From an uncultured Eubacteriales bacterium (GTDB lineage: Bacteria; Bacillota_I; Bacilli_A; RF39; UBA660): a DNA stretch of 64,000 nt. The stretch is from contig CAUUHY010000005.1 in assembly GCA_963545265.1 (NCBI GenBank), forward strand, positions 53-64,052. The letters run 5' to 3'. Below, piece after piece: positions 10,072 through 29,819 of this stretch. The notes under the pieces are model-generated. The model was not told where the DNA came from. It saw nothing but the letters and a program-made list of their open reading frames with translations, and did no database searches. A program made the position numbers and the translations under genes. Within the stretch, counting starts at the first letter, position 1. Every line of letters begins with the position of its first letter.

Positions 10072-10121
10072 TCACAATTTTACTTCTCTTAGTAGATTAA
10101 AAATATATCTGAATAAAAAAA

Positions 10122-11886: not shown

Positions 11887-11944
11887 ATTATCTAACTCCT
11901 TATATAAATTATATTTATCATATTCTTTATTTATAATATGTCAA

Positions 11945-12330: not shown

Positions 12331-12397
12331 AACATTATCTATATTTTTTAACAAAAAACAAGTTATATTATCTCTAATCAATTGTTCTTTCTTTATT

Positions 12398-15016: not shown

Positions 15017-15025
15017 AATAATCAT

Positions 15026-15262: not shown

Positions 15263-15308
15263 TCATAAAAAACTTATCTAAAATTTTTAAATTGTAATTT
15301 TTTATTCA

Positions 15309-15334
15309 ACAACTTATCTAATAACTTATCTAAA
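15309..15334. repeat. 26-bp perfect direct repeat ACAACTTATCTAATAACTTATCTAAA, copy 1 (two tandem 12-mers), abutting the methyltransferase stop codon
   Basis: Identical to 16839-16864. Confidence 0.7.
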
Positions 15335-15970
15335 TTATTTCATTTTTCTAGCCTTAATTAAACTATAATCGTCTTTATCAACATTACTTGAAGTTATTTC
15401 TTGAAAGCCAACCTTTTTTAATACTTCTATTTCATGTTCAACAGTAAGTGGTGTATCTATATGTTTGTGATTTTCTATATTGTTTTCTAGTTCATATAAT
15501 TGACCATCTTCTATTTCTTGTGATAAAGCTATCTTATCGCAATTTATAAATTGACCATTTTCTTTTAAACAATCATATATCTTTTTATATAGTTTTATTT
15601 TTTCTTCTATTTTAAAGTGATGAAGAGCTGATGTAGATATAACTGCATCATAATTATCTCCAAATTCTACTTCAAAGAAATCACCACATATAGTAGTTAC
15701 ATGATCTGCAAAACTTCTTTTCTTTAATTCTTCAAGCATATTTTCGGTAATATCTATGACTGTTACTTCAGCACCTGGAAATAGTTCAAATACATGAATT
15801 AATTCTAATCCTGTACCTGCACCCAAGTCTAATATTTTTTTAGTTTCTTTGTCTAAGCTATCTCCTAATGTTTTTTTAGTTTCCATATATGTACTATGTA
15901 CATCATCATAAGAATCTATCTTTTCATTAAAGAATGTTCTTTGTTTTTGATTTCTTTCATATAAATTCAT
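15335..15970 (-). CDS. class I SAM-dependent methyltransferase (small-molecule type)
   Basis: Motif I ILDLGAGTG and a post-I acidic residue, in a Rossmann-like fold. Confidence 0.7.
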   Translation of the reverse strand: MNLYERNQKQRTFFNEKIDSYDDVHSTYMETKKTLGDSLDKETKKILDLGAGTGLELIHVFELFPGAEVTVIDITENMLEELKKRSFADHVTTICGDFFEVEFGDNYDAVISTSALHHFKIEEKIKLYKKIYDCLKENGQFINCDKIALSQEIEDGQLYELENNIENHKHIDTPLTVEHEIEVLKKVGFQEITSSNVDKDDYSLIKARKMK

Positions 15971-15972
15971 AA

Positions 15973-16527
15973 TTATATCCCCCTTAAATTTACTTCTATA
16001 TTATTTCTAATTAAATCTTTGATTTCTTTATCTGTTAATTTAATACTATTTACACATAACTGTGTTGCTATACCATGAGTATAGAATCTTACTTCACGAT
16101 ATACCTTTTTTGCTTCTCCTAAAGATATTTTATATTGTTTTACCATTGCATTAATAGTTTCAACGTTTCTATCAGTATTTAACACTTCTTCTACTGTTCT
16201 AGAACCAGCAAAATCAGTCATAAACAATGAAAAGAATATATTTGGTTCTTTTTTTGCATAAAAAGCATATGCATAACTTATTGTGTATAAATAATCTTTT
16301 ATATCTATATACTTACGAATAAATGATGAGTAATCTTTCCTTAAATAAAATTTTAGATCTTCTTTATACATATCAAAGTTTTCATAGTTTTTAAATATTG
16401 GTTGTGTTGAACATCCTATATATTTAGCAAGTTCTCTAACTGTTAGATTAGAGTAACCTTTTTCCTTTATAAATTCAACACTCTTTTCTAATATATCTTC
16501 TTTAGAATATTTAATAGTTCTCGCCAT
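15973..16527 (-). CDS. TetR/AcrR family transcriptional regulator
   Basis: N-terminal HTH (LTVRELAKYIGCSTQPIFKNY). The start is set at the ATG with a GAGGTGA Shine-Dalgarno; the longer ORF begins at a GTG. Confidence 0.75.
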   Translation of the reverse strand: MARTIKYSKEDILEKSVEFIKEKGYSNLTVRELAKYIGCSTQPIFKNYENFDMYKEDLKFYLRKDYSSFIRKYIDIKDYLYTISYAYAFYAKKEPNIFFSLFMTDFAGSRTVEEVLNTDRNVETINAMVKQYKISLGEAKKVYREVRFYTHGIATQLCVNSIKLTDKEIKDLIRNNIEVNLRGI

Positions 16528-16550
16528 AAATATCACCTCACAAACGCATA

Positions 16551-16568
16551 AAATAACATTTGTTATTT
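16551..16568. promoter_or_regulatory. candidate TetR operator: perfect 8-bp inverted repeat AAATAACA-tt-TGTTATTT about 25 bp upstream of the tetR start
   Basis: A palindrome with the geometry typical of TetR-family operators. Confidence 0.4.
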
Positions 16569-16653
16569 TATTTTTAATGATTTAATATGTTTTTTAGAAA
16601 AAAACGTATCTAAAGTACTTTTTTGATAAAAATTACTAAAAATGTGGAACAAA

Positions 16654-16741
16654 GAAAAATCTCGCAATCCCTTTATTTATAAGGGAAAACGAGATTATTT
16701 ACCACAACATTGTTTATATTTCTTACCACTTCCACATGGTA
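16654..16741 (-). repeat. copy (B) of the secA 3' end plus terminator module
   Basis: It is 37/38 identical to the secA SEC-C codons (encodes ...LPCGSGKKYKQCCGK*). The terminator hairpin carries compensatory changes (TCCC/GGGA versus GTCC/GGAC). Confidence 0.6.
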
Positions 16742-16838
16742 ATAATTTAAAACAACCAGGTAATTTTTTCCTTTTAAATTGGTGTTTTTTATTTAAAACT
16801 TATAATTTTTTGTTCAATTATTGTAAGTTTTTTTTCGT

Positions 16839-16864
16839 ACAACTTATCTAATAACTTATCTAAA
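16839..16864. repeat. 26-bp perfect direct repeat, copy 2, about 25 bp downstream of the UDG-fusion gene stop
   Basis: Identical to 15309-15334. Confidence 0.7.
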
Positions 16865-16888
16865 AAAATTATTTTAGTGTGCTGAGAT

Positions 16889-17797
16889 CTAAAAGTTTGT
16901 AATATCTTGTAAATTCAAATTCTTAAATATTTCTTCATTACCTTTATAACTTAATGGTGATATAGGACTAGGATGATATATAGGGATTATTTTATATCCA
17001 TTTACATCAAATACCTTTCCAACAACATCAGAAAACCTTTTATATTTTACATCTAAAATCGTTCTAGTTGCAGAATATCCTAATGATAGTATTACTTTAG
17101 GTTTTATTTCTTCTAATTGCATAAAAAGAAATTTTTTACAGTTGATACTACACTTGTTTAAATATTTTTTATCAATAGGATAGCATTTTATTGCTTCAAT
17201 AAAATATGTATCTTCAATTGTTAAATTTATTAAATTTAATAATTTTTGCAAAACAACACCAGATGGTAACAATTTATGATTTATATCATACCATGCTATC
17301 CCACTTTTTCTCCAACCATTATTAGCTGGTGCTTCACCAAGTATAACAACATCTTTTTGCTTTCCAAATGAAACAGTTTTGCTATTAGGAAACTTTTCCA
17401 CCATATTTGAACACAAACTACAATTTTGGATTTTTTCATCTATAAGATTTAACTTAACTTTTAATTTTAGTAATTGATATCTTTCATTAGTATCTTCATT
17501 ATTTAAAACTTCATCTCTTGTTTTAATAACATAATTTGAATAATCAATTTTATCAACTTTAAATTGATCAGATGTAAAATCAATAATTTTATCATTGATA
17601 ATATTAAAATAATGACTAATACCGTTTATTTTTATTTTACAAATATTACCACCAAAATAATCATTTATCAATAATGCTACAATAGCACAATGTCCTAGAG
17701 TTTTATTATCTATATTCCATTGCTCTTTACAATCAGGATAACAAGTTTCTTTAGAATATATATTAATTAATATTTTTTCTAGTTTATCTAATTTCAT
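16889..17797 (-). CDS. fusion protein: N-terminal Cys-containing domain of unknown function plus a C-terminal uracil-DNA glycosylase superfamily domain (family 4/5-like)
   Basis: The C-terminal half has CxxC (NCSLCSNM), a GEAPA motif (VVILGEAPANNGW) and an HPSP motif (IYHPSPISPL), which are typical of UDG families 4 and 5. Confidence 0.55.
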   Translation of the reverse strand: MKLDKLEKILINIYSKETCYPDCKEQWNIDNKTLGHCAIVALLINDYFGGNICKIKINGISHYFNIINDKIIDFTSDQFKVDKIDYSNYVIKTRDEVLNNEDTNERYQLLKLKVKLNLIDEKIQNCSLCSNMVEKFPNSKTVSFGKQKDVVILGEAPANNGWRKSGIAWYDINHKLLPSGVVLQKLLNLINLTIEDTYFIEAIKCYPIDKKYLNKCSINCKKFLFMQLEEIKPKVILSLGYSATRTILDVKYKRFSDVVGKVFDVNGYKIIPIYHPSPISPLSYKGNEEIFKNLNLQDITNF

Positions 17798-17957
17798 ATT
17801 ATCCCTCAGCTAATAAATATTATATCATAAATCATTCATATTTCTTTATTTGTAATATTATTTATTTTTATTATCTAAAGAAGCAATTAAATCAGCAAAA
17901 AACTTATCTAAAACTTGTCCAGGACAAAAGATACGCTATAATTACCTAAATATTGCA

Positions 17958-18003
17958 ATCATAGAAAAACTCGCAAGTCCTTATTTATAGGACTTTACGA
18001 GTC
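17958..18003 (-). terminator. secA intrinsic terminator (GACTCGTAAAGTCC-loop-GGACTTGCGAGT plus a U-run)
   Basis: A hairpin immediately after the secA stop codon, followed by TTTTTCT on the minus strand. Confidence 0.65.
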
Positions 18004-20493
18004 TTATTTTCCACAACATTGTTTATATTTCTTTCCACTTCCACATGGACACATGTGGTTTCTACCTACTTTTTCTATATTTTTAGGTTTATTTTTTAAC
18101 TTAACTTTTCCATCATTAGTCATTTTTGACTTAGATATTTCTTGTCTTTCTTGATTTTGAGATATTTCAGATTTAACTAAGAATAAAGTTATTTCTTGAT
18201 CTATATTTTGTAACATCTTATTAAATAAGTCAAAACCTTCTACTGTATAAGCTCTAAGCGGATCTTGTTGACCATATCCTCTTAAATATATAGCTTCTCT
18301 AAAATGTTCCATAGCATTTATATGTTCTGTCCAGTATTTATCTACTACACTTAAAGTTATAACTTTTTCAAATTCTTCTACTACTTCAGTTGGTAATTCT
18401 TTTATTTTTTCTTGATATTCACTTAATATTTTTTCTTTTACAAAATATATTATAGCATCAGAATCCATTGAAGCTATTTCATCAAATTTAATATCTTCTC
18501 TAAGTAATGTATTAAAATATTCGACTATTTCTTGTAGATCTTCTTTTGTTAATTTTTCACTATCTATTAGTTTTGATTTAACAACATCAGTAACATGGTT
18601 TTCTACTGCGACTAAAATACTATCGTGAATAGATTCACTATCTAATATTTCATTTCTCTTAGCATACATTATTTCTCTTTGATTATTCATAACATCATCG
18701 TATTGTAATAAATTTTTACGAATATCAAAGTTGTTTCCTTCAACTCTTTTTTGTGCTGAAGAAAGCCCTTTAGTAAATCTCTTACTAGTTATTGCTTCTG
18801 TTTCTTCAAAACCTAATCTAATAAGCATATTCTTTAGACCATCAGTTCCAAATCTAACCATTAAATCATCTTCCATAGAAACATAAAATTGACTAAATCC
18901 AGGATCTCCTTGTCTTCCACTTCTTCCTCTTAACTGATTATCAATTCTTCTTGATTCATGTCTTTCAGTTCCTAAAACACATAAACCTCCAAGATCTTTA
19001 GTTTCATCAGTAAGTTTAATGTCAGTTCCACGACCTGCCATATTAGTTGCAACTGTAACTGCGCCTTTTTGTCCTGCTTTAGCTATAATTTCTGCTTCTC
19101 TAGCGTTGTTTTTAGCATTTAAGACTTCATGTTCGATATTTTTAGATGTCAACAATTGACTAATTAATTCATTAGTTTCTACAGCTATAGTACCAATAAG
19201 TATCGGTTGACCTAATTTATGTCTTTTTTCAACTTCATTAATTAAAGAAGTAAATTTACCTTTTTGTGTTGGATATAACAAATCTGGAGCATCTATTCTT
19301 GCTACTGGTTTATTAGTAGGAATACAAATAACTCTCATATTATATATATCATTAAATTCTTCTTCTTCAGTTTTAGCAGTACCTGTCATACCAGATAATT
19401 TATTATACATTCTAAATAAGTTTTGGAATGTTATAGTAGCTAAAGTCTTAGTTTCTTGATTAATCTTAACGTTTTCTTTAGCTTCTATAGCTTGATGAAG
19501 ACCATCACTATATGCTCTTCCCTTCATTAAACGTCCAGTAAATTGATCTACTATAACTATTTCACCATTATTAACTACATAATCTACATCTTTTCTCATA
19601 GAGAAATTAGCACGCAAAGCCTGATTAATATGATGAATTAAATTAGCATTTGATACTTCATAAAGATTAGCTAAATGGAATTCTTTTTCTCCTTTTTTAA
19701 CTCCTTCTTCTGTAAGTGTAACTGTCTTATTTTGTTCTTCATAGATATAATCTACATCTTTTTTTAATTTCTTAGCAAATCTATCTGCTGCTTCATACAT
19801 AGAAACATTTTTTAAATCTCCTCCAGATATAATTAAAGGAGTTCTAGCTTCATCTATTAAAACTGAGTCAACTTCATCTACTATTGCAAAATTAAGTTTT
19901 CTTTGTACTCTATCTTCTTTATGAGTAACCATATTATCTCTTAGATAATCAAATCCAAGTTCATTATTTGTAGTATATAAAATATCACATTCATATGCTT
20001 TTTTCTTTTCTTGTGGAGTTAAATCTCTTAAATTTATTCCAACGCTAAGTCCTAAAAATTCATGTATTCTTCCCATCCACTTAGCATCACGATCTGCAAG
20101 ATATTCATTAACAGTTACTATGTGTGTACCTTTACCATCTAGTGCATTTAAATAAGCTGGTAAGACAGAAGTTAAAGTTTTACCTTCTCCTGTTTTCATT
20201 TCAGCTATATTACCTTTATGTATAGCAATAGCACCAAGTAATTGAACATAGAATGGTTTTTCATTATTTACTCTAAATGCTGCTTCTCTTGCCGTAGCAT
20301 AAGCTTCAACTAAAATATCATCTAATGTTTCACCATTTTCTAATCTATTTTTAAATTCATCAGTCTTTGCTTTTAATTCATAATCTGAAAGTTTAGAATA
20401 TTCTTCTTCTAACTCTTCAATTTTATCAGCAATTACAGAAAATTTTTTAAGTTCTCTATAATCTTGATCAAATAATCTTTTTAAAAAATTCAT
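18004..20493 (-). CDS. secA: preprotein translocase ATPase SecA
   Basis: DEAD-like motor motifs, a preprotein cross-linking domain and a C-terminal SEC-C zinc finger (CPCGSGKKYKQCCGK). Confidence 0.95.
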   Translation of the reverse strand: MNFLKRLFDQDYRELKKFSVIADKIEELEEEYSKLSDYELKAKTDEFKNRLENGETLDDILVEAYATAREAAFRVNNEKPFYVQLLGAIAIHKGNIAEMKTGEGKTLTSVLPAYLNALDGKGTHIVTVNEYLADRDAKWMGRIHEFLGLSVGINLRDLTPQEKKKAYECDILYTTNNELGFDYLRDNMVTHKEDRVQRKLNFAIVDEVDSVLIDEARTPLIISGGDLKNVSMYEAADRFAKKLKKDVDYIYEEQNKTVTLTEEGVKKGEKEFHLANLYEVSNANLIHHINQALRANFSMRKDVDYVVNNGEIVIVDQFTGRLMKGRAYSDGLHQAIEAKENVKINQETKTLATITFQNLFRMYNKLSGMTGTAKTEEEEFNDIYNMRVICIPTNKPVARIDAPDLLYPTQKGKFTSLINEVEKRHKLGQPILIGTIAVETNELISQLLTSKNIEHEVLNAKNNAREAEIIAKAGQKGAVTVATNMAGRGTDIKLTDETKDLGGLCVLGTERHESRRIDNQLRGRSGRQGDPGFSQFYVSMEDDLMVRFGTDGLKNMLIRLGFEETEAITSKRFTKGLSSAQKRVEGNNFDIRKNLLQYDDVMNNQREIMYAKRNEILDSESIHDSILVAVENHVTDVVKSKLIDSEKLTKEDLQEIVEYFNTLLREDIKFDEIASMDSDAIIYFVKEKILSEYQEKIKELPTEVVEEFEKVITLSVVDKYWTEHINAMEHFREAIYLRGYGQQDPLRAYTVEGFDLFNKMLQNIDQEITLFLVKSEISQNQERQEISKSKMTNDGKVKLKNKPKNIEKVGRNHMCPCGSGKKYKQCCGK

Positions 20494-20519
20494 AATATCA
20501 CCTAAAGTAATTCTATCAA

Positions 20520-20545
20520 AAAAAGACTTGTAATTACAAGTCTTT
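20520..20545 (-). terminator. hpf terminator (12-bp palindromic stem AAAGACTTGTAA/TTACAAGTCTTT plus U7)
   Basis: A perfect palindrome followed by TTTTTTT on the minus strand. Confidence 0.5.
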
Positions 20546-20557
20546 TAACGAACTATG

Positions 20558-21079
20558 TTACTTATCTTCCTCAATAAGTCCATAATTTTCATCTTTTCTT
20601 TTATATAACACTTTTATATCCATAGATTCAGCATCTTTAAATATAAAGAAATCATGTCCTAATAATTCCATTTGTAATATTGCTTCTTCTTCATTCATAG
20701 GAATTAGTTCGATTTTCTTTCTCTTAACTATAGATTTTTCATTAGATTTTAATTCTTCTATTTCTTCATAGATAAATATTTCTTCTCTTCTTTTAGAAAG
20801 CTTAGTTTTATTTTTTCTAATTTGTCTTTCTATTTTATCTATAGATAAATCAATTCCCGCATATAAATCATCATTTTTTTCTTCAGCTCTTATATATAAA
20901 TTTCCCGTATTTAATGTAAACTCTACACTATAATTTGTATTTTTATTACCAGAAAGCAATACATTTAATTCCATATCTTCTTTGCTAATATACTTATTTA
21001 ATTTAGAAGATTTTTCTTCTATATAACTCTTAATAGAATCTGTCACTTCAAAATCTTTTGCTCTAATATTTATTCTCAT
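20558..21079 (-). CDS. hpf: ribosome hibernation promoting factor, long form
   Basis: N-terminal YfiA/RaiA fold (MRINIRAKDFEVTDSIKSYIEEK) and a C-terminal dimerisation domain. Confidence 0.85.
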   Translation of the reverse strand: MRINIRAKDFEVTDSIKSYIEEKSSKLNKYISKEDMELNVLLSGNKNTNYSVEFTLNTGNLYIRAEEKNDDLYAGIDLSIDKIERQIRKNKTKLSKRREEIFIYEEIEELKSNEKSIVKRKKIELIPMNEEEAILQMELLGHDFFIFKDAESMDIKVLYKRKDENYGLIEEDK

Positions 21080-21114
21080 ACATTACCTCCTTATATGTTA
21101 AATAAATTAATGAA

Positions 21115-24100
21115 TTATTTTCTCTTTTTACAAGTCTTTCTTGATTTTTGACAGTAAGATTCGTTTCCTGCTTTATCTTTAGCTCTATAACAAGTTCCAC
21201 CATCTCCATCACAATTTGAATTTTTCTTTTTATTTACCGTTTCTCCTGATTTAGAAGTAGCTAAGCCACTTTCATAATCTTCAAATTCACATTTTTTATA
21301 AAAAATACTACCATCTGAAGTTTCACATTCTGAATCTAAACTTTCTTTGGTTTGTACTGGTGGTTCATCATCTATTCTAAATGTTAAACTACATCCTCCT
21401 ACATTACCTGCTGCATCCATCATTAAAAGATTCATTGTTCTTGTATCAGAAGAATAATCATGATTCTTATCATCCTTTTTCTTCTTTTGTATTTTTTTCA
21501 TAAACTTTTTAGCTTTATCAGTAATTTTTGTATGGTCAGAACCCATATGACCATTATTTTCCCAAATAGTATCGTGACTATTCATAATAAATCGCTCATA
21601 TTTAGGTTTTGGTTTTTTAACACCTGTTACTTCATCTTTATCAGAATCTTCATCTCTTAATTTATAATAAGGTTCTGCAAAAGCTATTTTATTAAGATTT
21701 GATAACATTTCCATACTCTGTACTTTAAAATTTTTTACATCAGTTATCCATTTACCATCTTCTGTATAATCAAAATCCCAATTGCTAGTATCATTTAAAT
21801 AATCTCTATCTAAAGAACCTTTTATATCTCTAGATACTTTATCTCTAACAATATTAAATGTACAAACTGGATTAGTTTTATCTATTAATACTCCATACTT
21901 AGCAACTGTCTTTCTACCTTCATCAGAAAGATTTCTATAACTTCTTGTATTTAATTCACAAACACCCATATTACCAGCTAAATCATATATAACTCCATAA
22001 GGTTTAGTCCATGCACTATAATTTGGAGTTCTAACATGTTCATTTGGATTAAGTGCCGTTTCTTTAGTCATTCTAAATACATCACCATATTCATCAACTT
22101 GTTCTAATTTTATATAATCATCATCAAAATAAGATTTAAGTCCTGCTGTATTACCTGCTGTATTACGTTTTCCCCAATTTATTTGTGAATACAAAAAGTT
22201 AGGTGCTACATCTATATAACTATTTGCTAAATCATTTGGCACATTAGTCACAGGTCTTAAGCATTTATTATTTCCTTTATAAGTAAACTTATCATTATTA
22301 CTACGTTCCCTAACACCTTCTGTACCATTACAACTGTCTACTTTATCAAGATCAGAAAAATAAACATATACATCACTATTAAACCACCAATTAATATTAG
22401 GATGGTTTCCTCTTATACTTATTTGACAAACAGGTGATTGTTTTCTTATATTTTGTACTTCAACAGTCTGTTGCACTCTATTACCAGCATTATCAACAAC
22501 AATTACTTGATACGATCCGTTATTAGATGCATATCTATATTTCTCTCTAGAAGTTATTTTATTACCAGTATTATTTTCAACTGTTTCAATTTCTTTAATA
22601 CCACTTATATCGTCTCTTGCATCAAAATATAATTGAACAGCATTTCTTGTAAATATTCTTTTTCCTCTTACTGGATTTTCATTACTTCTTGTATATACAT
22701 AAACAGATTTAATATTATTTATGTTACCTTGAATTTGTAAAGAATTTAAATCTCTCACTTCTGGAAATCTAAGTAAAACTCTTCTTCCACCATTACTTAT
22801 AGTCCTAGTAAATATTTCTCCATTTACATTAAATATGTATTCTGATGCTTGCGAATTATCTTTCAATTCTATAGCTATAAGTTTAACGTCTGTAAAATCA
22901 GTTATATTCTCTGCTCCATAAATTCCCATAACTGGATCTCTTAAAGTCCATTGTTCAGTTCCTTTAAGTCCTTTTTTGATATTACATCCTTCTTCTCCAT
23001 TATCATATTTATCTGTATATTGACTAGGGAAATATCCAACTTTTCTACACGCACTTTCATCTACAACTAATTCTTGATCACGATCATATATTTGATATCC
23101 ATAATATATATCTTCTGGAGTTAATTCCGGTGGTTTTCTATCATTAGTAGTTTGAATAGGGTTACGACAAGAACTTCCATTACAATAATTATTTGGATTA
23201 TTATTATTATTATGAGGATAATAATTATTGTTTCCTCCCCTATTATGCGGAGACCATCCTTTGTCTCTACTTAATTCGTTACCAGCATTATCTTTTGCAT
23301 ATCCATATACTAGGTTAATACCATCTTTTAATTCAAGCTCTGTTAATTGATTATAATTTGGTGTATCTGCACTATCTCCAAGACCCCAAGTAGCTATTCC
23401 ACTTTCATTATCTTTTAAATAAGTTATTTGGACTTTTCCATTATTTAAACCTAAGGAAATATATGGATTTCTAACATCTTGCATTACCTTAACTTCACAA
23501 GCTGTAGATCTTCCTTTTCTATCATAAACATTTATATTTTCTTTTACTTTATAACTTCCTGGTTTTGCTTCAAACTTCTTACTATAAAGTTCTCTTTTAC
23601 ATCTTTCTCCACCTAATTCATCAATACATCTTACAGAAGTTTCTACTTCTTTATTTGTCCATTTATCATTTTCTATTTCTACTTCACATTGAACATTAGG
23701 ACATACTTTACCTTTTTCACACTTATTAGTACCAGGTTGATAATTTTCATCTGTTTCATCATCATCTGATTCTTTTAATTTTAAAAGACTCTTACAATCA
23801 TCTTTTAATCTATTTTTTCTACATTCTAAATATTTATTTAAACCATCATAAAGATTTGAACATCCAATACCAACTTCATTACCACAAATAATACAAGCTT
23901 TGTATTCGTAATTTTGATTACCAACATTTTTTATTTGAACAATACTGATATCTCTATAACAATATCTTTCTTTCTCATCAGTTCCTTCTTTATAATAAGG
24001 ATTTTTTAAATCTTGTTCATATCCTTCTTCTATAAGTTGTCCTAAAGTTACTATTTCTCTAGAATTTTCTTTTGGAACTGGACAATTTTTATTGTTAGTA

Positions 24101-24339
24101 TCTTCGCAATATTTATTTTCGCTAAGATATGTACTCGTCATATTTTTTCCTGCTGTCTTCATTCCGTTTTCGTGACTAATAAGTACATTTTTTTTAGTCT
24201 TACTTATATATCCAGTTACAGATATTATCGCAATAGAACTAAGAATCCCTATAATAACGATAACTGCTATAATTTCTACTAGAGTAAACGCTTTTTTACT
24301 GTGTTTACATTTTTTGTTACATTTTATTTTTTTCTTCAT
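21115..24339 (-). CDS. giant (1074 aa) Cys/Asn/Lys-rich surface protein with a type IV prepilin (class III) N-terminal signal and five internal D-x-AGN repeat modules
   Basis: Leader MKKKIKCNKKCKHSKKA is followed by FTLVEIIAVIVIIGIL with Glu at +5. D-x-AGN motifs recur every ~100-260 aa (AKDNAGNELS, VVDNAGNRVQ, YDLAGNMGVC, MMDAAGNVGG, AKDKAGNESY). An AGGGAG Shine-Dalgarno precedes the ATG. Confidence 0.6.
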   Translation of the reverse strand: MKKKIKCNKKCKHSKKAFTLVEIIAVIVIIGILSSIAIISVTGYISKTKKNVLISHENGMKTAGKNMTSTYLSENKYCEDTNNKNCPVPKENSREIVTLGQLIEEGYEQDLKNPYYKEGTDEKERYCYRDISIVQIKNVGNQNYEYKACIICGNEVGIGCSNLYDGLNKYLECRKNRLKDDCKSLLKLKESDDDETDENYQPGTNKCEKGKVCPNVQCEVEIENDKWTNKEVETSVRCIDELGGERCKRELYSKKFEAKPGSYKVKENINVYDRKGRSTACEVKVMQDVRNPYISLGLNNGKVQITYLKDNESGIATWGLGDSADTPNYNQLTELELKDGINLVYGYAKDNAGNELSRDKGWSPHNRGGNNNYYPHNNNNNPNNYCNGSSCRNPIQTTNDRKPPELTPEDIYYGYQIYDRDQELVVDESACRKVGYFPSQYTDKYDNGEEGCNIKKGLKGTEQWTLRDPVMGIYGAENITDFTDVKLIAIELKDNSQASEYIFNVNGEIFTRTISNGGRRVLLRFPEVRDLNSLQIQGNINNIKSVYVYTRSNENPVRGKRIFTRNAVQLYFDARDDISGIKEIETVENNTGNKITSREKYRYASNNGSYQVIVVDNAGNRVQQTVEVQNIRKQSPVCQISIRGNHPNINWWFNSDVYVYFSDLDKVDSCNGTEGVRERSNNDKFTYKGNNKCLRPVTNVPNDLANSYIDVAPNFLYSQINWGKRNTAGNTAGLKSYFDDDYIKLEQVDEYGDVFRMTKETALNPNEHVRTPNYSAWTKPYGVIYDLAGNMGVCELNTRSYRNLSDEGRKTVAKYGVLIDKTNPVCTFNIVRDKVSRDIKGSLDRDYLNDTSNWDFDYTEDGKWITDVKNFKVQSMEMLSNLNKIAFAEPYYKLRDEDSDKDEVTGVKKPKPKYERFIMNSHDTIWENNGHMGSDHTKITDKAKKFMKKIQKKKKDDKNHDYSSDTRTMNLLMMDAAGNVGGCSLTFRIDDEPPVQTKESLDSECETSDGSIFYKKCEFEDYESGLATSKSGETVNKKKNSNCDGDGGTCYRAKDKAGNESYCQKSRKTCKKRK

Positions 24340-24436
24340 AATAAAGTAACTCCCTTGTATTATAATGATAACATTTTAAAAAAATAATGTGTTATTTTAT
24401 ATACACATTATCATTTTATATGTAAAAATACAATTA

Positions 24437-25486
24437 TTATTTTTTGTTTTCTAAGTTAATTTTATCACTTAAAATATTAGTATGAAAAACAAACCATAAA
24501 GTTAAAACAAATAAAACAACATAAACTATTTTACCAAGTACCCTCTCTTTTATAACATAAAAAATTGATGCTATAGAAAACAAAGTATTAATTAAATATA
24601 TTATTAAAACTGTTTTTTTATGAGAAAATCTCATTTTTAGTATTTGATGATGAAAATGATCTTTATCCGGATCAAATATTGGTTTATGTTTTAATTTTCT
24701 TCTAAATATTGCAAATAGAGTATCAAATATTGGAATTGATAAAATTAAAAGTGGCACAACTAAAGATGTAATCATAGCTGATTTAAAGCCTACTACCGAA
24801 GTAACACCAATAATAAATCCTAAAAAGACTGATCCTGTATCACCTAAAAATGTTTTAGCTGGATTAAAATTATATTTTAGAAAACCTAAAGATGAACCAA
24901 GCATAGATATAGCTAAGAAAAGTTCTAATGTTCCAAATCTTTCTTGAAATAGAGAAATAACTATTATAGTTAAAAAATATATAGAAGATATTCCAGTTGC
25001 TAAACCATCAAGTCCATCTATTAGATTTATTATGTTCATACAAGAAACTATAAATAAAATAGTTAGTGGTATTGCATAATAGCCTAAATTGATAGTAAAA
25101 CCAAAGATACCAATATTAGAAATCAGTAAATTTCCATATAAAACTACAATAGAAGCAGATACTATGTGAAGTAAAAATTTTATTTTAGCAGGAACTGGTT
25201 TAACATCATCAAATAAACCTAAAATAATAATTATAAAAGATCCTACCACTATAGCTAGTAATTCTTTAGAAAAATTACCGAATAATAATACTGCTAATAT
25301 AAAAGAAATATATACTGCTAAACCTCCAATTCTAGGTATTGGTTTAGTATGAACTCTTCGTTCGTCTTTAGGTACATCTATTGCATTTATATGATGTGCC
25401 ATTTTTATAACTTGTGGTGTTACAAGTAAAGAAGTCAACATAGGTATTAAAAACATCAAAAATAATCTTAAGTAATAAAATTCCAT
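24437..25486 (-). CDS. tagO: UDP-GlcNAc:undecaprenyl-phosphate GlcNAc-1-phosphate transferase (TagO/WecA family)
   Basis: Polytopic membrane protein with DDxxD and NLIDGLDGLA motifs of the MraY/WecA superfamily. Confidence 0.75.
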   Translation of the reverse strand: MEFYYLRLFLMFLIPMLTSLLVTPQVIKMAHHINAIDVPKDERRVHTKPIPRIGGLAVYISFILAVLLFGNFSKELLAIVVGSFIIIILGLFDDVKPVPAKIKFLLHIVSASIVVLYGNLLISNIGIFGFTINLGYYAIPLTILFIVSCMNIINLIDGLDGLATGISSIYFLTIIVISLFQERFGTLELFLAISMLGSSLGFLKYNFNPAKTFLGDTGSVFLGFIIGVTSVVGFKSAMITSLVVPLLILSIPIFDTLFAIFRRKLKHKPIFDPDKDHFHHQILKMRFSHKKTVLIIYLINTLFSIASIFYVIKERVLGKIVYVVLFVLTLWFVFHTNILSDKINLENKK

Positions 25487-25494
25487 TTCTTCTC

Positions 25495-25941
25495 CTATTT
25501 TAATTGATTTTCATAGTTAGTTATTTTTTCTATTCTTTTTATATGTCTTTCTTCATTAGAAAATTCTGAAGTTATAAATGTTTCTATTATTTCTATTAAA
25601 TCTTCTAAATTATTAGCAGCAGATAGCGCTAACATATTCGCATCATTATGATTTCTTGCAAGTCTTGCTTCTTCTTTATTTACAACTCTTGCACATCTAA
25701 TACCTTTTACTTTGTTGCAAGCTATGCTCATACCTATTCCAGTACCACAAATAGCTATACCATAATCCAAATTTTTCTTAGCTACTTCTTCTGCTAAAGA
25801 TATACCATATAGCGAATAATCACACGCTCCTGATGTAAAACATCCATTATCTTTTATTTCAATATTCTTATCTTTTAAAGCTTTTATTATTTCGCTTTTT
25901 ATTTCAAATCCTCTATGATCTGAAGTAATTCCAATTATCAT
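25495..25941 (-). CDS. rpiB: ribose-5-phosphate isomerase B
   Basis: RpiB/LacAB motifs (IGITSDHRG, ICGTGIGMSI). Confidence 0.85.
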   Translation of the reverse strand: MIIGITSDHRGFEIKSEIIKALKDKNIEIKDNGCFTSGACDYSLYGISLAEEVAKKNLDYGIAICGTGIGMSIACNKVKGIRCARVVNKEEARLARNHNDANMLALSAANNLEDLIEIIETFITSEFSNEERHIKRIEKITNYENQLK

Positions 25942-25982
25942 TAGATACCTCCTTATCTAATTTTAACAAAAAAAAAGATGAA

Positions 25983-26195
25983 TTACTCACCTTTTGTATC
26001 AAAACCATATTTTTTGTTAAATTTATCTACTTTTCCAGCTTTTCTCTTTCTATTATCTATTCCTGTATAGAATGGATGACATTTAGAACATGTTTCAATA
26101 CGAATTTCTGATTCTGTTGATTGTACATCAAAAATAGCACCACATGAACATATTACTTTTGCATCTTTATATGCTGGATGAATTCCTTTTCTCAT
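25983..26195 (-). CDS. rpmE: 50S ribosomal protein L31
   Basis: MRKGIHPAYK...CSCGA...CSKCHPFYTG. The start is set at the Met preceded by a GGAAGGAGA Shine-Dalgarno. Confidence 0.85.
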   Translation of the reverse strand: MRKGIHPAYKDAKVICSCGAIFDVQSTESEIRIETCSKCHPFYTGIDNRKRKAGKVDKFNKKYGFDTKGE

Positions 26196-26287
26196 TTTAT
26201 CTCCTTCCGCCATGATTTATTAAAAATCATAGAAATTAAATACGATGTTATTTTAACAAGTAATCAAAAACTTTTCAAGTATTATTA

Positions 26288-27544
26288 TTACTCATCTAAT
26301 ATTTTTATATCTGCACCTATTTCAACAAGTTTGTTTTCTATACCTTCATAACCTCTTAAAATATGTTCAGCATTTAATATTCTTGTTTTACCTACTGCTG
26401 CAAGACCAGCAAGTAAAACTGCTGCTCCACCCCTCAAATCTGTAGCATAAACTTCTGTTCCTTTCAAATACGTAGGACCTGTTATATATGCTTTATCATC
26501 TACAACAGATATTTTAGCTCCCATTTTCTTTAATTCTTCTACATGCATAAATCTATTTTCCCAAATAGTTTCTTCTATAGAAGAAACGCCTTCTGCTTTC
26601 GTAAGAAGCGTTGACAATGGTTGTTGAAGATCGGTTGGAAACCCCGGATATATTAAAGTTTGAACATTAATTGGTTTTAAATTATTACTTTCATAAACTG
26701 TTATATAATCATCTCCTATATCTAATTTAACATTCATTTCTTGTAATTTAGATACAAGAGAAGATAAATGTTCAGGTATTATGTTATATACTTTAAGACT
26801 TTTAGTTGCAAGTGCACCTAACATTAAATATGTACCTGCTTCTATTCTATCAGGAATAATTTCATCAAAACATCCTTCAAGTTCATCTACTCCTTCTATT
26901 TTAATAGTTCCAGTTCCTGCTCCTGTTATTTTACCACCCATATTATTGATAAAAGTTGCAACATTTACTATTTCTGGTTCTTTTGCTGCATTATGAATAA
27001 TAGTCGTACCTTTAGCAAGAGAAGATGCAAGCATAATATTTATAGTAGCTCCAACACTAGCTATATCTAAATAAATATCTGCACCTTTTAATTCTTCTGC
27101 TTCTATATAAAATGTAGAATTATCATATTTTACAGTTGCCCCCATAGATTCAAACGCTTTTAGATGTAAATCTATTGGTCTTTTACCAATATTACATCCT
27201 CCAGGAAAAGACATTTTTACTTTTTTAAATCTAGCTAAAAGTACTCCCATAAAATAATATGATGCTCTTAATTTAGAAGAATATTCATAACCAATTTCTT
27301 TATTTTCAATATTATTAGCATCAATTGTCATTGTTTCTGTATTTCTAGTTACATTACAACCTAAATATTTTAAAATGTTAATCAAATCTTCTGTATCTGT
27401 AATATCTGGAACATTACATAGTGTACTAATATTTTTGCTTGCTAATATTGCTGCTGGAATAAGTGCAACTGTTGCATTTTTAGCTCCACTTATTTTTATA
27501 CTTCCCTCTAATTCTTTTCCACCATTTATTTCAATAATTTTCAT
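26288..27544 (-). CDS. murA: UDP-N-acetylglucosamine 1-carboxyvinyltransferase
   Basis: EPSP-synthase fold and an active-site Cys region (FPGGCNIGKRPIDLH). Confidence 0.9.
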   Translation of the reverse strand: MKIIEINGGKELEGSIKISGAKNATVALIPAAILASKNISTLCNVPDITDTEDLINILKYLGCNVTRNTETMTIDANNIENKEIGYEYSSKLRASYYFMGVLLARFKKVKMSFPGGCNIGKRPIDLHLKAFESMGATVKYDNSTFYIEAEELKGADIYLDIASVGATINIMLASSLAKGTTIIHNAAKEPEIVNVATFINNMGGKITGAGTGTIKIEGVDELEGCFDEIIPDRIEAGTYLMLGALATKSLKVYNIIPEHLSSLVSKLQEMNVKLDIGDDYITVYESNNLKPINVQTLIYPGFPTDLQQPLSTLLTKAEGVSSIEETIWENRFMHVEELKKMGAKISVVDDKAYITGPTYLKGTEVYATDLRGGAAVLLAGLAAVGKTRILNAEHILRGYEGIENKLVEIGADIKILDE

Positions 27545-28398
27545 TATGACTCCATTAATTTCAATTTATATTCTACTACATTTTTTAAATTTTCTTCACC
27601 GCTACTTATTACTTTTCTTGGATCATAAACATCTTTTTTATTTTCTACAAATTTTACTACTCCTTCATGCCAAGCTTGTTGAAGTTCTGTATTAATGTTT
27701 ATTTTTGATATTCCTAGTTTTATAGCAAGTTTAATTTTTTCATCTGGTATTCCACTTCCACCATGTAAAACTAAAGGAATAGTTATATTATTTTTTAATT
27801 TTGTTAAAAGCTCAAAATCTAGATTTGGTTCACCTTGATATACACCATGAACACTTCCGATAGCTGGAGCTAACATATCAACTCTTGTTTCTTTAACAAA
27901 TTTTATACAGTCATCTAAAGATGCTACTAAAACACCTCCTACTACACCATCTTCTATTCCACCTATATGCCCAACTTCTGCTTCTACTGTTACGTTTTTA
28001 TCGTGAGCATACTTCACAACTTCTTTTGTGATATTAATATTTTCTTCCAAACTATACTTTGATGCATCAATCATAACAGAAGAAAATCCAGCATCTATAG
28101 CTTTTTTACAATTTTCTATACTTGAACCATGATCTAAATGTAAACAAACATCTATAGCTATATTTAAATCTTTTACTAAAGAATAAACTAAGTGAGCTAC
28201 TACATTATATCCCCCCATATATTTTATAGCGCCCTCACTTACACCAATAATCACATTTTTATTTAACTCATTACATTTTTCTAATATAAATTTAGTCCAC
28301 TCTAAATTATTGATATTAAAGTGAGCTATACATTTACCATTATCCCTTGCTTCTTTAAGCATTTTTTTTGCATTAACTATCATATCATATTCTCCCAT
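27544..28398 (-). CDS. fba: class II fructose-bisphosphate aldolase
   Basis: Class II FBA motifs (HLDHG, GGIEDG). The stop overlaps the murA start by 1 nt. Confidence 0.85.
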   Translation of the reverse strand: MGEYDMIVNAKKMLKEARDNGKCIAHFNINNLEWTKFILEKCNELNKNVIIGVSEGAIKYMGGYNVVAHLVYSLVKDLNIAIDVCLHLDHGSSIENCKKAIDAGFSSVMIDASKYSLEENINITKEVVKYAHDKNVTVEAEVGHIGGIEDGVVGGVLVASLDDCIKFVKETRVDMLAPAIGSVHGVYQGEPNLDFELLTKLKNNITIPLVLHGGSGIPDEKIKLAIKLGISKININTELQQAWHEGVVKFVENKKDVYDPRKVISSGEENLKNVVEYKLKLMES

Positions 28399-28472
28399 TT
28401 TATTTTAACATATTAATACCGTTATTATAATAAAATTAATATATTATTTTTTTAGAAAAAGAAAAATAGTTA

Positions 28473-29819
28473 TTAACTATCTTTCTTATAAATATTAACT
28501 TTAATTTTCTTAATTTTCGATGCATAAGTAAGTTTTGGATCATCTCCAGTAACAAATACATCAAGTTCATGAACTCCAACTGTCTTTCCAGATAAATCAA
28601 CATAAGCTTGTATTGTAGCTTTATCTATTTTTTCAATATTTTCTTTTGTTCCTCTTACTTCAACAGATACTGTTCTAGATTCATTGTTTGCACCTTGAAC
28701 AACTAAATCATCCGATAAATTTTTATAATTAATTGTTATATCATCAATCGTCTTAGTAGCAAGTTCATCTACTGTTATATCAACAGTTATAGTCTTAATA
28801 CTAATATCTGTTATACCTTTTGGTTTTTGTAAATTAACAGTATATTTTTTATTAGAATCCAGTCCTGTAACATCTATTTCAACTGGTAAATAATTTAATT
28901 GAGATAAAGCTTCTGAACTACCATAAACTTTAACCTCAGAATCGCTTTGAACAATAGATTTAATAGCTTTTGTACTTAAGTTACCTGTAGTTAAAATTCT
29001 AATTGGCACTGTCTTAGATAATGCTTCTAATTTAACTGTTGCAGTTATCTTAGATGAAACTATTTCTACATTTATTGCTTTACCATCTGAATCATATGCT
29101 ACTAATTTGACGTCGTTATAATTAATAACTCCTTCCTTAGATGAAGATAATTTTCTAGCATCTATTAAAGCTTTTACTATAGATACTTTTTCAAGTGTAG
29201 CATTACTTCCTTTAATTATTACAGAATCTTTACTTAACTTAACTTCAGAAATAAACAATTGAGAATTAAATTTATCTTTATTAATAATTTCTGATGTTAC
29301 AGCTCTTTTATCTGAAACTTTATTTAGTATTGTAACAGTTACTTCTGAAGGATCAATTCTGTAATTTACTCCTTTTAAAACTTGTTCATATTTCAATTTT
29401 ACTTTATGTGTTCCAGGTTTTAAATATTTTAAGTCAACTGTCACTTCCTTAGATGGATATTGTTTAGCTAGATATATATCCCATCTTTTACCAATAAGAG
29501 TAATATCTACTTTTTCAGGTAAACCTTCTACAATATATTCTTCTTCATTATATAAAGCCTTTACTTTTTGTCCATATAACACTTCTGCATTAGATTCAGA
29601 TAATACCACTATTTTTTTATCTACGACAAAAAATAATAACAATGCACATATTAAAGAAAGAATTATTACGGAAGACTTTTTACTCCATAATACATCTAAT
29701 GACTCTAAAATACTTTTAATTTTTTCTCCAATAATAATCAAAAATTTACTTAAAGGATTAATTACATACTTATCAAAAAAATTAAATATAGAACTAAAAC
29801 TATTATTTGTTTTCTTCAT
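28473..29819 (-). CDS. cdaR: CdaA regulatory protein CdaR (YbbR-repeat protein)
   Basis: N-terminal TM plus repeated YbbR-like modules. It overlaps cdaA by 17 nt. Confidence 0.8.
   Translation of the reverse strand: MKKTNNSFSSIFNFFDKYVINPLSKFLIIIGEKIKSILESLDVLWSKKSSVIILSLICALLLFFVVDKKIVVLSESNAEVLYGQKVKALYNEEEYIVEGLPEKVDITLIGKRWDIYLAKQYPSKEVTVDLKYLKPGTHKVKLKYEQVLKGVNYRIDPSEVTVTILNKVSDKRAVTSEIINKDKFNSQLFISEVKLSKDSVIIKGSNATLEKVSIVKALIDARKLSSSKEGVINYNDVKLVAYDSDGKAINVEIVSSKITATVKLEALSKTVPIRILTTGNLSTKAIKSIVQSDSEVKVYGSSEALSQLNYLPVEIDVTGLDSNKKYTVNLQKPKGITDISIKTITVDITVDELATKTIDDITINYKNLSDDLVVQGANNESRTVSVEVRGTKENIEKIDKATIQAYVDLSGKTVGVHELDVFVTGDDPKLTYASKIKKIKVNIYKKDS

Follow-up and report, generated by a model that had tools for sequence, protein, structure and literature searches.

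The gene on the minus strand at positions 21115..24339 of the window (the whole 64-kb stretch of DNA analysed here) appears to encode a modular type IV pilin of giant size that is most likely a minor, low-abundance subunit, and we put the probability of this reading at roughly 55%. The sequence supports an architecture in which a canonical class III signal and a pilin module are followed by about 900 residues of beta-sandwich and low-confidence modules, and in which neither a second membrane anchor nor a sortase signal is present. The predicted product is thus built as modular pilins are, with a pilin module followed by at least one structural module that is not specific to type IV pilins. Modular pilins are an established class with a carrier-plus-effector logic (PMC8179133), and what is new here is a very large example of that class.

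The reading frame starts with an ATG and is open for just 4 codons 5' of it, with no alternative start upstream.

21115..24339, minus strand: giant prepilin-type coding sequence, 1074 aa plus stop, complete, supported by synteny and dN/dS
24350..24356, minus strand: AAGGGAG, a Shine-Dalgarno sequence seen in the DNA itself, 10 nt ahead of the ATG

An earlier note on this DNA had credited the gene with its own Shine-Dalgarno sequence, which is present, and with a promoter-like sequence, which does not stand out: promoter-like matches numbered 38 versus 38.5 expected from shuffled DNA, and the scan for promoters and terminators carried little information in this DNA of 23% GC. Upstream of the gene there is a hairpin rich in AT with a T-run after it, which is suggestive only. 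The product is rich in Cys, Asn and Gly, as had been noted (3.0% or 32 residues, 10.1% and 7.0%, respectively, of the 1074-aa protein), and the predicted mature form after removal of the leader has 1057 aa and a mass of 120.5 kDa. Full-length homologues with 63-99% identity share the synteny of the gene, and dN/dS is below 1 over the entire length of the frame. These comparisons show a real ORF of 1074 aa whose synteny is conserved and on which purifying selection acts.

We then analyzed the N-terminal part of the protein, in which the predicted cleavage point falls between the first two segments listed here.

24289..24339, minus strand: leader peptide, aa 1-17 (MKKKIKCNKKCKHSKKA), basic, with Ala at -1
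24214..24288, minus strand: hydrophobic alpha1N, aa 18-42 (FTLVEIIAVIVIIGILSSIAIISVT), N_methyl motif with Phe at +1 and Glu at +5 (FTLVE...)
23860..24288, minus strand: pilin module, aa 18 to ~160

The leader of 17 aa contains nine Lys or Arg residues and no Asp or Glu, ends in Ala17, and is 88% identical across four homologues of 63-67% identity. It is followed by about 25 hydrophobic residues that begin with Phe at +1 and carry Glu at +5. This alpha1N segment is the sole transmembrane-like window in the protein, with a Kyte-Doolittle value of 3.0 versus 0.98 for the best window elsewhere. Both curated models of the signal scored above their cut-offs (Pfam N_methyl, PF07963, 24.3 bits with a cut-off of 21.2; TIGR02532, 25 bits with a cut-off of 16.3), and the PpdD, GspG, PilA and ComGC models gave weaker matches that reached aa 63-79. 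In the PDB search, type IV pilins or pseudopilins accounted for all 16 matches of the single sequence and all 21 matches of the profile. F18 paired with mature residue 1 of the pilins in these matches. The match to S. sanguinis PilE1 had an E-value of 7e-14 and covered 95 of 139 residues, and profile E-values against solved pilins went down to 4e-16.

The pilin module consists of an alpha1 helix (aa 20-73, 54 residues), an alpha-beta loop with C78 and C86, and a small antiparallel sheet, and it closes with a Y-x-Y-x-x-C-x-x-C-G motif. AlphaFold2 placed the 54-residue helix on a small beta-sheet, giving the lollipop fold in which an extended alpha1 of about 53 residues packs on an antiparallel beta-sheet. 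In alignments, aa 1 to ~160 match stand-alone pilins of 140-180 aa from end to end. Judged by sequence and predicted fold, this region is a genuine class III signal (IPR012902) with a complete pilin module. The class III prepilin signal proposed in the earlier note is therefore upheld by PF07963 and TIGR02532 and by the exclusive match to pilins in the PDB. The note had also envisaged that the true start might lie downstream of FTLVE; the next Met is residue 60 and the leader is conserved, which speaks against it.

The remainder of the protein was divided into the following modules.

23695..23859, minus strand: Cys-rich acidic linker, aa 161-215, AlphaFold2 pLDDT below 50 at aa 192-209
23470..23694, minus strand: Ig-like beta-sandwich 1, aa 216-290, AlphaFold2 pLDDT ~75-94
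23266..23469, minus strand: Ig-like beta-sandwich 2, aa 291-358, with D-x-x-SG at aa 310 and the first D-x-AGN
23134..23265, minus strand: Asn/Gly-rich low-complexity linker, aa 359-402, AlphaFold2 pLDDT below 50, 47% conserved
22660..23133, minus strand: jelly-roll-like beta-sandwich, aa 403-560, AlphaFold2 confident at aa ~404-419 and 479-560
22435..22659, minus strand: Ig-like module 3, aa 561-635, with D-x-x-SG at aa 576 and D-x-AGN at aa 616-620, pLDDT 75-88
21370..22434, minus strand: fast-evolving distal region, aa 636-990, AlphaFold2 pLDDT mostly below 50
21118..21369, minus strand: C-terminal Cys-rich beta module, aa 991-1074, with D-x-x-SG at aa 1021, pLDDT 77-89

The acidic linker is 83% conserved in the four homologues of 63-67% identity. 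In Ig-like sandwich 1, which ends in a degenerate DRKGR, residues W227, C238, C247 and C281 are invariant in the family columns, and the fold matches were tandem Ig/FnIII domains. The jelly-roll-like module is kept in distant relatives (YGYQIY ... NVNG ... motif), occurs also in P0006-P0013 and P0020, and gave weak fold matches to glycosidase accessory domains. The C-terminal module ends in a basic tail.

Pfam and NCBIfam scans of sub-segments returned only the N_methyl motif above threshold. Matches below threshold came from the OmpL47-type model NF047446 in Ig-like module 3 (26.9 bits; cut-off 40), from DUF7743 (16.7-20.5, with 20.5 for aa 561-635; cut-off 27) and from Big_7 (16.6; cut-off 24.1). 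Membership of the OmpL47-type, DUF7743 or Big families, whose HMM scores stay below the cut-offs, would agree with the fold and with the D-x-x-SG and D-x-AGN motifs. AlphaFold2 gave confident beta-sandwich structure at aa 217-355, in parts of 404-634 and at ~994-1074. For aa 395-1074, the model came from a shallow alignment of 6 close homologues and reached a mean pLDDT of only 56; its matches to known folds (SiiE, PKD and accessory domains of glycosidases) are generic and speak to beta-sandwich architecture only, the PKD-like matches belonging to this model as a whole and to no one module. The multi-module beta-sandwich passenger proposed earlier thus holds in part: several modules were modelled, and aa 636-990, roughly a third of the total length, lack a confident model. 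Regular-expression and hydropathy searches of the whole protein found no LPXTG sortase motif and no C-terminal hydrophobic segment.

An (AAT)5.7 run at 23197-23213 lies inside the Asn/Gly-rich linker. Phase variation through this Asn tract was ruled out, since the AAT repeat preserves the frame. Protein lengths in the 90%-identity cluster vary between 1071 and 1077 aa.

The earlier note had described five periodically spaced D-x-AGN repeat modules. The five motifs are real and are located as follows.

23278-23292, minus strand: D-x-AGN 1, aa 350-354, in Ig-like sandwich 2
22480-22494, minus strand: D-x-AGN 2, aa 616-620, in Ig-like module 3
21970-21984, minus strand: D-x-AGN 3, aa 786-790, in the distal region
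21403-21417, minus strand: D-x-AGN 4, aa 975-979, in the distal region
21163-21177, minus strand: D-x-AGN 5, aa 1055-1059, in the C-terminal module

Composition predicts 0.018 such motifs versus the five seen (Poisson P ~2e-11), and no more than 2 occurred in any of 20,000 shuffles. Across five homologues, one 99% identical and four 63-67% identical, the Asp and the G-N are invariant at all five sites and the Ala is conserved at four of the five. A sixth, degenerate motif, the DRKGR at aa 273, reads D-x-[AS]GN in most of the aligned distant relatives. The motifs are not periodic, being 266, 170, 189 and 80 aa apart, and the modules are not sequence repeats. The best BLAST match between modules had an E-value of 0.001 over 47 aa, BLAST and Tandem Repeats Finder found no real repeats, and the only DNA tandem arrays that the latter reported in the gene were a 12-bp duplication and the AAT run. 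By sequence, the modules have diverged strongly from one another, stand at uneven distances and have only short strand-end motifs in common.

The rate of evolution changes along the protein. The dN/dS of the pilin module is 0.05-0.08, equal to that of secA, murA and tagO (0.06-0.10), and that of aa 636-1074 is 0.55-0.57. Identity to the four homologues of 63-67% is 45-48% in aa 636-990. Because of this steep gradient from a head conserved at housekeeping level to a fast-evolving tip, the distal modules are likely determinants of host or substrate specificity.

The protein is one member of a large, uncharacterised family, as delimited by homology, that comprises at least 820 clusters at 50% identity, with a median length of ~990 aa and a maximum of 3792 aa. 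Almost all members come from uncultured organisms, and the relatives whose loci were fetched all come from AT-rich DNA (22-31% GC). Of 19 first-round homologues, 17 carry the signal [GA]-F-[TS]-L-x-E, as do 132 of the 147 representatives of the family (Gly at -1 in 114, Ala in 18), and the remaining sequences of both sets mostly look like truncated start calls. An alignment of 55 relatives shows no variation at F18, T19, L20 and E22. Other members join the same head to different cargo (Flg_new, Ephrin_rec_like, HYR, ALK_LTK_GRD, Big_3 and choline-binding repeats), a pattern that matches the carrier-plus-effector logic proposed for modular pilins (PMC8179133). The giant size that the earlier note had singled out is therefore confirmed at 1074 aa but is less exceptional than the note implied, given that modular pilins are established and that the family reaches well beyond this length. 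One relative, P0040, had been considered a pseudogene fragment; this was dropped, the source assembly being error-ridden with every gene fragmented.

On the modular-pilin reading, SRP/Sec would insert alpha1N into the membrane while the basic leader stays in the cytoplasm. A prepilin peptidase of the PilD/ComC type, encoded elsewhere in the genome, would cut after Ala17, possibly with N-methylation of Phe18, and type IV filament machinery (a type IV pilus or a Com-like system) would dock the protein into a filament through its pilin module. We infer both the cleavage and the incorporation from the signal and the head. A position at or near the filament tip would be most likely because of the bulk of the passenger. 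Tip-capping subunits in known filaments lack Glu5 (PMC10191384), whereas Glu5 is retained here, which counts against the reading. The chain of Ig-like and jelly-roll modules would project through and past the cell wall, where the rapidly diverging distal modules might bind an external ligand, for example mucus, a second cell, or a glycan of host or dietary origin. The conserved pilin plus two-Ig head would act as the carrier, and the C-terminal part as exchangeable cargo. We infer the adhesin role from just two features, the domain type and the evolutionary rate.

The closest known systems are compared here with the giant pilin. The S. sanguinis pilins PilB (vWA) and PilC (lectin) also come from a monoderm host, also carry a class III signal and a small pilin module followed by C-terminal non-pilin modules, and likewise have a predicted role in adhesion with the pilin as carrier (Raynaud et al. 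2021, PMC8179133; PMC9934059). However, they are bimodular, much smaller and encoded in a pil locus, and their piliation and binding were shown experimentally, whereas this protein has at least six extra modules, comes from an orphan gene and shows no signature by which a vWA or lectin domain could be recognised. The type IVb subunits CofB (ETEC) and TcpB (V. cholerae) resemble it in joining a pilin domain through a flexible linker to beta-repeat and beta-sandwich domains; both occupy the filament tip, where CofB forms a trimer, and CofB in addition acts as the adaptor of a secreted protein (PMC8179133). They differ in belonging to diderm Proteobacteria, in being much smaller and in having no sequence similarity to the giant pilin beyond alpha1. 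The genes for CofB and TcpB lie in pilus operons.

PilC/PilY1 of type IVa pili are large, modular and tip-displayed and also combine a conserved carrier with variable effector modules, but they are not pilins, have no class III signal and dock on the minor-pilin complex through a C-terminal beta-propeller. The Sulfolobus bindosome proteins are likewise large, do not form filaments and use a pilin-type signal and its processing for a surface function; in contrast to the giant pilin, they are archaeal, follow another signal consensus, depend on the dedicated Bas assembly system and have no globular pilin head. SiiE, MpIBP and related RTX adhesins and the LPXTG MSCRAMMs share chains of Ig-like or PKD-like beta-sandwiches with variable distal binding regions, and SiiE and MpIBP were among the fold matches of our models. 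Those proteins rely on type I secretion or sortase, whereas the giant pilin has no LPXTG and the pilin head is its sole anchor.

The gene stands alone between a tagO-like GT4 gene and hpf-secA. All window ORFs of at least 90 aa were read for pilus machinery, and neither the T2SSE Walker A box nor the GGGDxK box of PilD turned up in motif scans of the 64-kb window. No PilB, PilC or PilD gene was found in the window or in the 10 kb that adjoin it on the left, which bears out the earlier statements that pilB, pilC and pilD are missing from the window and that the tagO-hpf-secA neighbourhood is free of pilus genes. A Peptidase_A24-like gene or GGGDxK motif was likewise missing from the window, from the 10 kb to its left and from 328 kb of related loci, and in nine of nine independent family contexts there was no prepilin peptidase, assembly ATPase or platform gene within 10 kb. 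In favour of the modular-pilin reading, pilin genes away from biosynthetic operons are common, and some have been verified experimentally (PMC3244431). Only about 25% of predicted Gram-positive pilins are orphans (PMC3244431), which makes the consistent isolation of the family genes notable. This isolation counts against the modular-pilin reading, as does a size far above that of characterised pilins. The largest of those have ~420-550 aa, and we know of no solved or characterised pilin near 1074 aa.

The same isolation would fit a scheme in which the class III N-terminus served only as a Sec-inserted, possibly peptidase-trimmed anchor, and the protein never polymerised and formed a wall-spanning, pilus-independent stalk adhesin with its variable tip exposed. 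We regard this as the foremost alternative, though an unlikely one. It would agree with the one N-terminal transmembrane segment and no other anchor, with a passenger (120 kDa here, up to 3792 aa in relatives) that is hard to fit into filament packing, and with related genomes in which several large N_methyl proteins are scattered in housekeeping operons, three of them within 22 kb in loci L016 and L017. A plain anchor, however, would need neither near-invariant Glu at +5, Phe at +1 and Gly or Ala at -1 at 25-35% identity, nor a globular pilin head that is held at a dN/dS of 0.05 and shares full-length homology with stand-alone pilins. According to published reviews, the peptidase site has Gly or Ala at -1, and Glu5 forms a salt bridge inside filaments (PMC10191384). 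The conserved [GA]-F-[TS]-L-x-E exceeds the needs of a simple anchor and supports the pilin reading.

More broadly, in these reduced and very AT-rich gut Firmicutes, the conserved pilin plus two-Ig head might be a general display tag for interchangeable giant cargo (up to 3792 aa) that operates without a conventional pilus, either as a peptidase-processed membrane stalk or in a short pseudopilus-like or bindosome-like assembly. We consider this rather improbable; if true, bacteria would be using class III signal peptides in a new way. Slightly more doubtful still is the specific proposal of a non-pilus, class III-dependent assembly, either bindosome-like or a short pseudopilus serving to push large proteins or to hold them in the wall. 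In reduced gut Firmicutes of low GC content, the head would then be a general tag for export and display. One conserved head with interchangeable cargo in at least 820 clusters and orphan genes in all contexts examined would suit it, and there is an archaeal precedent in sugar-binding proteins with class III signals and a dedicated assembly system (PMC3047682). But no candidate assembly genes lie beside any family member, and the data fit ordinary minor-pilin behaviour equally well. No such system is known to us in bacteria. Finally, a chance resemblance, in which an ordinary Sec signal-anchor or a downstream start precedes an unrelated secreted or surface protein, is effectively refuted: AT-rich genomes often show a Lys-rich leader before an Ile/Val-rich segment and the Pfam score is just a few bits above its cut-off, but two independent curated models exceed their thresholds, nothing except pilins was matched in the PDB, the similarity extends through alpha1C and the globular head, and the conserved leader has no alternative start on either side before aa 60.

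If the giant modular pilin is the correct reading, it and its family would extend the modular-pilin concept, proposed as a route by which simple type IV filaments gain diverse functions, to subunits of 120-400 kDa. To our knowledge, studies of modular pilins have until now been confined to small examples with two modules. The finding raises the questions of how large a cargo type IV machinery can handle and move across the Gram-positive wall and of whether a pilin head always serves polymerisation, and the distal modules that are candidates for specificity belong to an uncultivated gut lineage. Should complete genomes prove to lack pilus machinery, the finding would be considerably more interesting.

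One metagenome scan with an AT-biased Walker-A pattern returned, among the matches listed, no contig from samples in which this organism is known to occur. Two further observations speak for the modular-pilin reading. The matches listed did include contig L077 (record OIFU01000010.1, 25% GC), not tied to this organism, which carries PilB-like and PilC-like genes, with DUF881, T2SSE and T2SSF genes in a row. In a related 25%-GC genome, a gene for a 112-aa pilin lies immediately 5' of comEA-comEC.

We identified the giant gene, in a listing of the open reading frames of the window, as a 1074-codon frame on the minus strand (21115-24339). The frame stays open for just four codons upstream of its ATG, and the second Met of the protein comes only at residue 60. 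The gene has its own Shine-Dalgarno sequence, as the earlier note had claimed: AAGGGAG precedes the ATG at a spacing of 10 nt. The separate promoter-like sequence also claimed for it was not supported: such matches were no commoner than in shuffled DNA. In the gap that separates the giant gene from the tagO-like gene, an AT-rich hairpin of 9 bp (ATAATGTGT ... ACACATTAT) stands before seven consecutive T (24384-24411, minus strand). This is a possible weak terminator of the upstream gene, which the terminator scan missed because the hairpin has too few G-C pairs.

The N-terminus of the protein reads MKKKIKCNKKCKHSKKA up to the predicted cleavage site and FTLVEIIAVIVIIGILSSIAIISVT after it. The leader of 17 residues has nine basic and no acidic residues and ends in Ala at -1, where prepilin peptidase sites have Gly or Ala as a rule (PMC10191384), and the predicted mature protein starts with Phe at +1 and has Glu at +5. 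With Pfam N_methyl at 24.3 bits (gathering score 21.2) and TIGR02532 at 25 bits (cut-off 16.3), the class III (type IV pilin) signal proposed from the sequence was confirmed. The protein has a single hydrophobic stretch, with a best 19-residue Kyte-Doolittle window of 3.0 versus 0.98 elsewhere. Neither an LPXTG motif nor a second hydrophobic segment was found in the whole protein, so the pilin head is its only anchoring device.

The likeness to pilins extends beyond the signal. When residues 1-195 were compared by phmmer with all PDB sequences, all 16 matches were type IV pilins or pseudopilins, including the Geobacter PilA-N domain, PAK pilin, gonococcal and meningococcal PilE, S. sanguinis PilE1, GspG and PpdD, and F18 of the giant protein paired with mature residue 1 in every one. 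A profile of the module and its stand-alone relatives improved the PDB matches to E = 4e-16, and the match to PilE1 then spanned 95 of its 139 residues. The family profile further brought in stand-alone pilins of 140-180 aa, which can be aligned along the entire module and share its Y-x-Y-x-x-C-x-x-C-G ending. AlphaFold2 modeled residues 1-400 from a 55-sequence alignment (mean pLDDT 77) with a 54-residue helix at residues 20-73 followed by a small beta-sheet (pLDDT around 90). We conclude that residues 1 to about 160 are a complete pilin module and not merely a pilin-like signal.

Homologues of the giant protein at 99% and at 63-67% identity were found in metagenomes and in two MAGs (uncultured Clostridiales and Eubacteriales). 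The assemblies with this gene include the MAGs CAJPPJ01 and CAUTAF01, and contigs of 808-868 kb are on record for members of one homologue cluster. In the loci that were fetched, those of the 99% form and of the two homologues from MAGs, the gene is flanked by a GT4 (tagO/mraY-family) gene and by hpf-secA, which bears out the conserved tagO-hpf-secA neighborhood described earlier. The neighboring housekeeping proteins are 84-99% identical between the homologue-bearing genomes. The giant protein itself diverges progressively along its length.

Identity to homologues and dN/dS along the giant protein
Residues 1-160, pilin module: identity 88-99%, dN/dS 0.05-0.08
Two Ig-like modules: identity about 83%, dN/dS 0.15-0.22 (computed for residues 161-358)
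Residues 403-560: identity 74%, dN/dS 0.34-0.39 (computed jointly for residues 403-635)
Residues 561-635: identity 62%, dN/dS 0.34-0.39 (the joint value for residues 403-635)
Last 440 residues: identity 45-50%, dN/dS 0.55-0.57

The dN/dS values for comparison were 0.06-0.09 for secA, 0.10 for murA and 0.06-0.08 for the tagO-like gene. The head is thus under the constraint of a core gene, and nothing else in the neighborhood evolves as fast as the distal part. The giant gene is a real gene under selection, and its position is conserved. A near-identical copy of the region in a metagenome assembly (GCA_015473145.1, contig BNJS01002252.1) has every gene broken into fragments of 30-140 aa; pseudogenization was rejected for this copy, as fragmentation that hits every gene looks like assembly or sequencing error.

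Five D-x-AGN motifs occur in the protein (residues 350, 616, 786, 975 and 1055), compared with 0.018 expected from composition and a maximum of two in any of 20,000 shuffles. The motifs reported earlier are thus real, but the periodicity ascribed to them is not (spacings of 266, 170, 189 and 80 residues), and the modules that they end are not recognizable as sequence repeats. Ig-like domain 1 ends in a degenerate DRKGR, with D-x-[AS]GN there in most distant relatives aligned. The recurring D-x-x-SG and D-x-AGN are markers of domain features, not of repeats. The proposal of a modular beta-sandwich passenger was upheld in part: beta modules were modeled, but residues 636-990 were not confidently modeled.

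Confident parts of the AlphaFold2 model of residues 395-1074
About residues 404-419 and 479-560: beta-sandwich
Residues 564-634: Ig-like domain (OmpL47-type, DUF7743 and Big_7 matches, all sub-threshold)
Residues 994-1074: Cys-rich C-terminal beta module

The fold matches of these three parts were generic (glycosidase accessory domains, SiiE, PKD domains and an ice-binding adhesin). Within the gene, an (AAT)5.7 microsatellite at 23197-23213 encodes a poly-Asn tract. The 90%-identity cluster has 153 members, with lengths from 1071 to 1077 aa, which indicates in-frame length polymorphism of the Asn linker; phase variation by this tract was rejected because the length changes are in-frame. A perfect 12-bp tandem duplication at 22142-22166 (CCTGCTGTATTA x2.1 on the plus strand, encoding NTAGNTAG) yields an extra, sixth "AGN" that is absent in the 63-67% homologues.

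Searching 1.84 billion cluster representatives with a profile built from residues 1-375 recovered 820 proteins at E <= 1e-30. The best 147 of these reach 3792 aa, with a median of 988 aa and with 72 proteins above 1000 aa. The motif [GA]-F-[TS]-L-x-E lies near the N-terminus in 132 of the 147. Most of the others have as their first residue a Met from within this motif, and this points to mis-called starts. When 42 members were scanned with Pfam, they proved to have a common N_methyl head and diverse C-terminal cargo: Flg_new, Ephrin-receptor-like and TNFR-like Cys-rich repeats, HYR, an ALK/LTK glycine-rich domain, Big_3 and choline-binding repeats. This shared head with varied cargo follows the same carrier-plus-effector logic as the modular pilins of Raynaud et al., who counted more than 1200 in 264 architectures, the most extreme multi-domain case being a protein of 860 residues in which one motif occurs 12 times (PMC8179133). 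Our literature search found no published description of this particular family.

Genes for PilB, PilC, PilD, PilT or Com proteins were not found in the window by reading all open reading frames of at least 90 aa, by a Pfam scan of the last nine or by motif scans, in agreement with the earlier note. The 10 kb beyond its left end holds only cls, gltX, cysS and other housekeeping genes, and in eight more contexts, of family members or of related small pilins, no biosynthetic gene was seen within 10 kb. It is not unusual for a pilin gene to be an orphan, and there are experimentally verified cases (PMC3244431); the isolation seen here, in nine of nine cases, is more consistent than that survey would predict. 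In related genomes, large N_methyl proteins are likewise wedged between core operons, in the order rpoC ... tuf, 606-aa protein, femAB ... topA, 333-aa protein in one arrangement and ftsA-ftsZ, 511-aa protein, spoIIGA-sigE in another.

Genes in three loci of related low-GC genomes for large N_methyl proteins (331, 606/613, 333 and 511 aa, each single between core operons such as rpoC, tuf, femAB, topA and ftsZ/spoIIGA) and for a 112-aa pilin directly 5' of comEA-comEC
L016 (L017 has the same layout): 3147-4142, 10001-11821 and 20264-21265
L018: 10001-11536 and 17725-18063

A relative of 25% GC carries a 112-aa pilin directly 5' of comEA-comEC, which is not assignable to the window's genome. 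An AT-biased Walker-A pattern also recovered a metagenome contig (OIFU01000010.1, 302,679 nt, 25% GC) with a DUF881 gene, a PilB-type T2SSE ATPase gene (418 bits) and a T2SSF platform gene in a row at 887-4077. This set might represent the machinery type of the lineage, but nothing ties it to the genome of the window. Both finds point, indirectly, to machinery in bacteria of similar composition.

Judged from its sequence, the giant protein combines a canonical class III signal, a strongly constrained complete pilin head and a long passenger, rich in beta structure, whose distal part evolves fast; it has no other anchor. By analogy with type IV filament biology (PMC10191384), SRP/Sec would insert alpha1N, leaving the basic leader in the cytoplasm, and prepilin peptidase would cut after Ala17. 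Alpha1N would then dock the head into a type IV filament, Glu5 pairing with the N-terminus of the neighboring subunit, and the bulky passenger would force a place at or near the tip. We give this reading, in which the protein is processed and docked by its pilin head at or near the tip, a probability of about 0.55. Filament-capping subunits lack Glu5 (PMC10191384), so its retention argues against the giant protein being the very cap. The main rival, in which the protein is processed yet retained in the membrane as a wall-spanning stalk, is a distinctly less probable alternative, and a pilus-independent or pseudopilus-type display system appears unlikely. A chance resemblance to pilins is effectively excluded. 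The earlier interpretation was largely right in kind, and the giant protein, which does not represent a new type of system, is best classed as a new modular type IV pilin of unusual size within an extensive uncharacterized family of AT-rich uncultured bacteria. If complete genomes proved to lack prepilin peptidase and assembly ATPase, its interest would rise sharply.

Envelope-glycan genes (GT4 tagO-like, GT2, LtaS-type sulfatase, PAP2, Wzz/CpsB and Alg14/GT28) often adjoin family members or related small pilins. The adjacency may be chance, or it may reflect a connection with glycosylation or wall assembly.

Sites of envelope-glycan gene adjacency, in the window and in loci of family members or related small pilins
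Window: 24437-25486
L003: 1689-9402
L005: 14243-19657
L012: 7838-9938
L015: 2793-4922

Other features of the window
33531-33885, minus strand: tmRNA gene (Rfam 133.5 bits, tag peptide GNLFKKQAYAFA), just 3' of smpB (34857-35297) and the RNase R gene (35281-37395)
26201-26232, minus strand: L31-Firmicutes ribosomal-protein leader (RF03156, 35.5 bits, gathering score 33.3), directly 5' of rpmE (25983-26213)
1-13400, with 1-10000 of locus L019: hypothetical or accessory genes between hisS and a cardiolipin synthase gene

The last stretch, which contains DUF3781, DUF3841, a GNAT fusion, DUF6847 and an RsgA-like GTPase, has the look of a variable island, set in a region that otherwise carries housekeeping genes. 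The GC skew of the plus strand is strongly and uniformly negative at 15000-30000, and the minus strand holds almost all credible genes of the window, with dnaX-ybaB-recR and gyrA at the right end. Together these features suggest that the window is near the origin of replication, on the leading strand.
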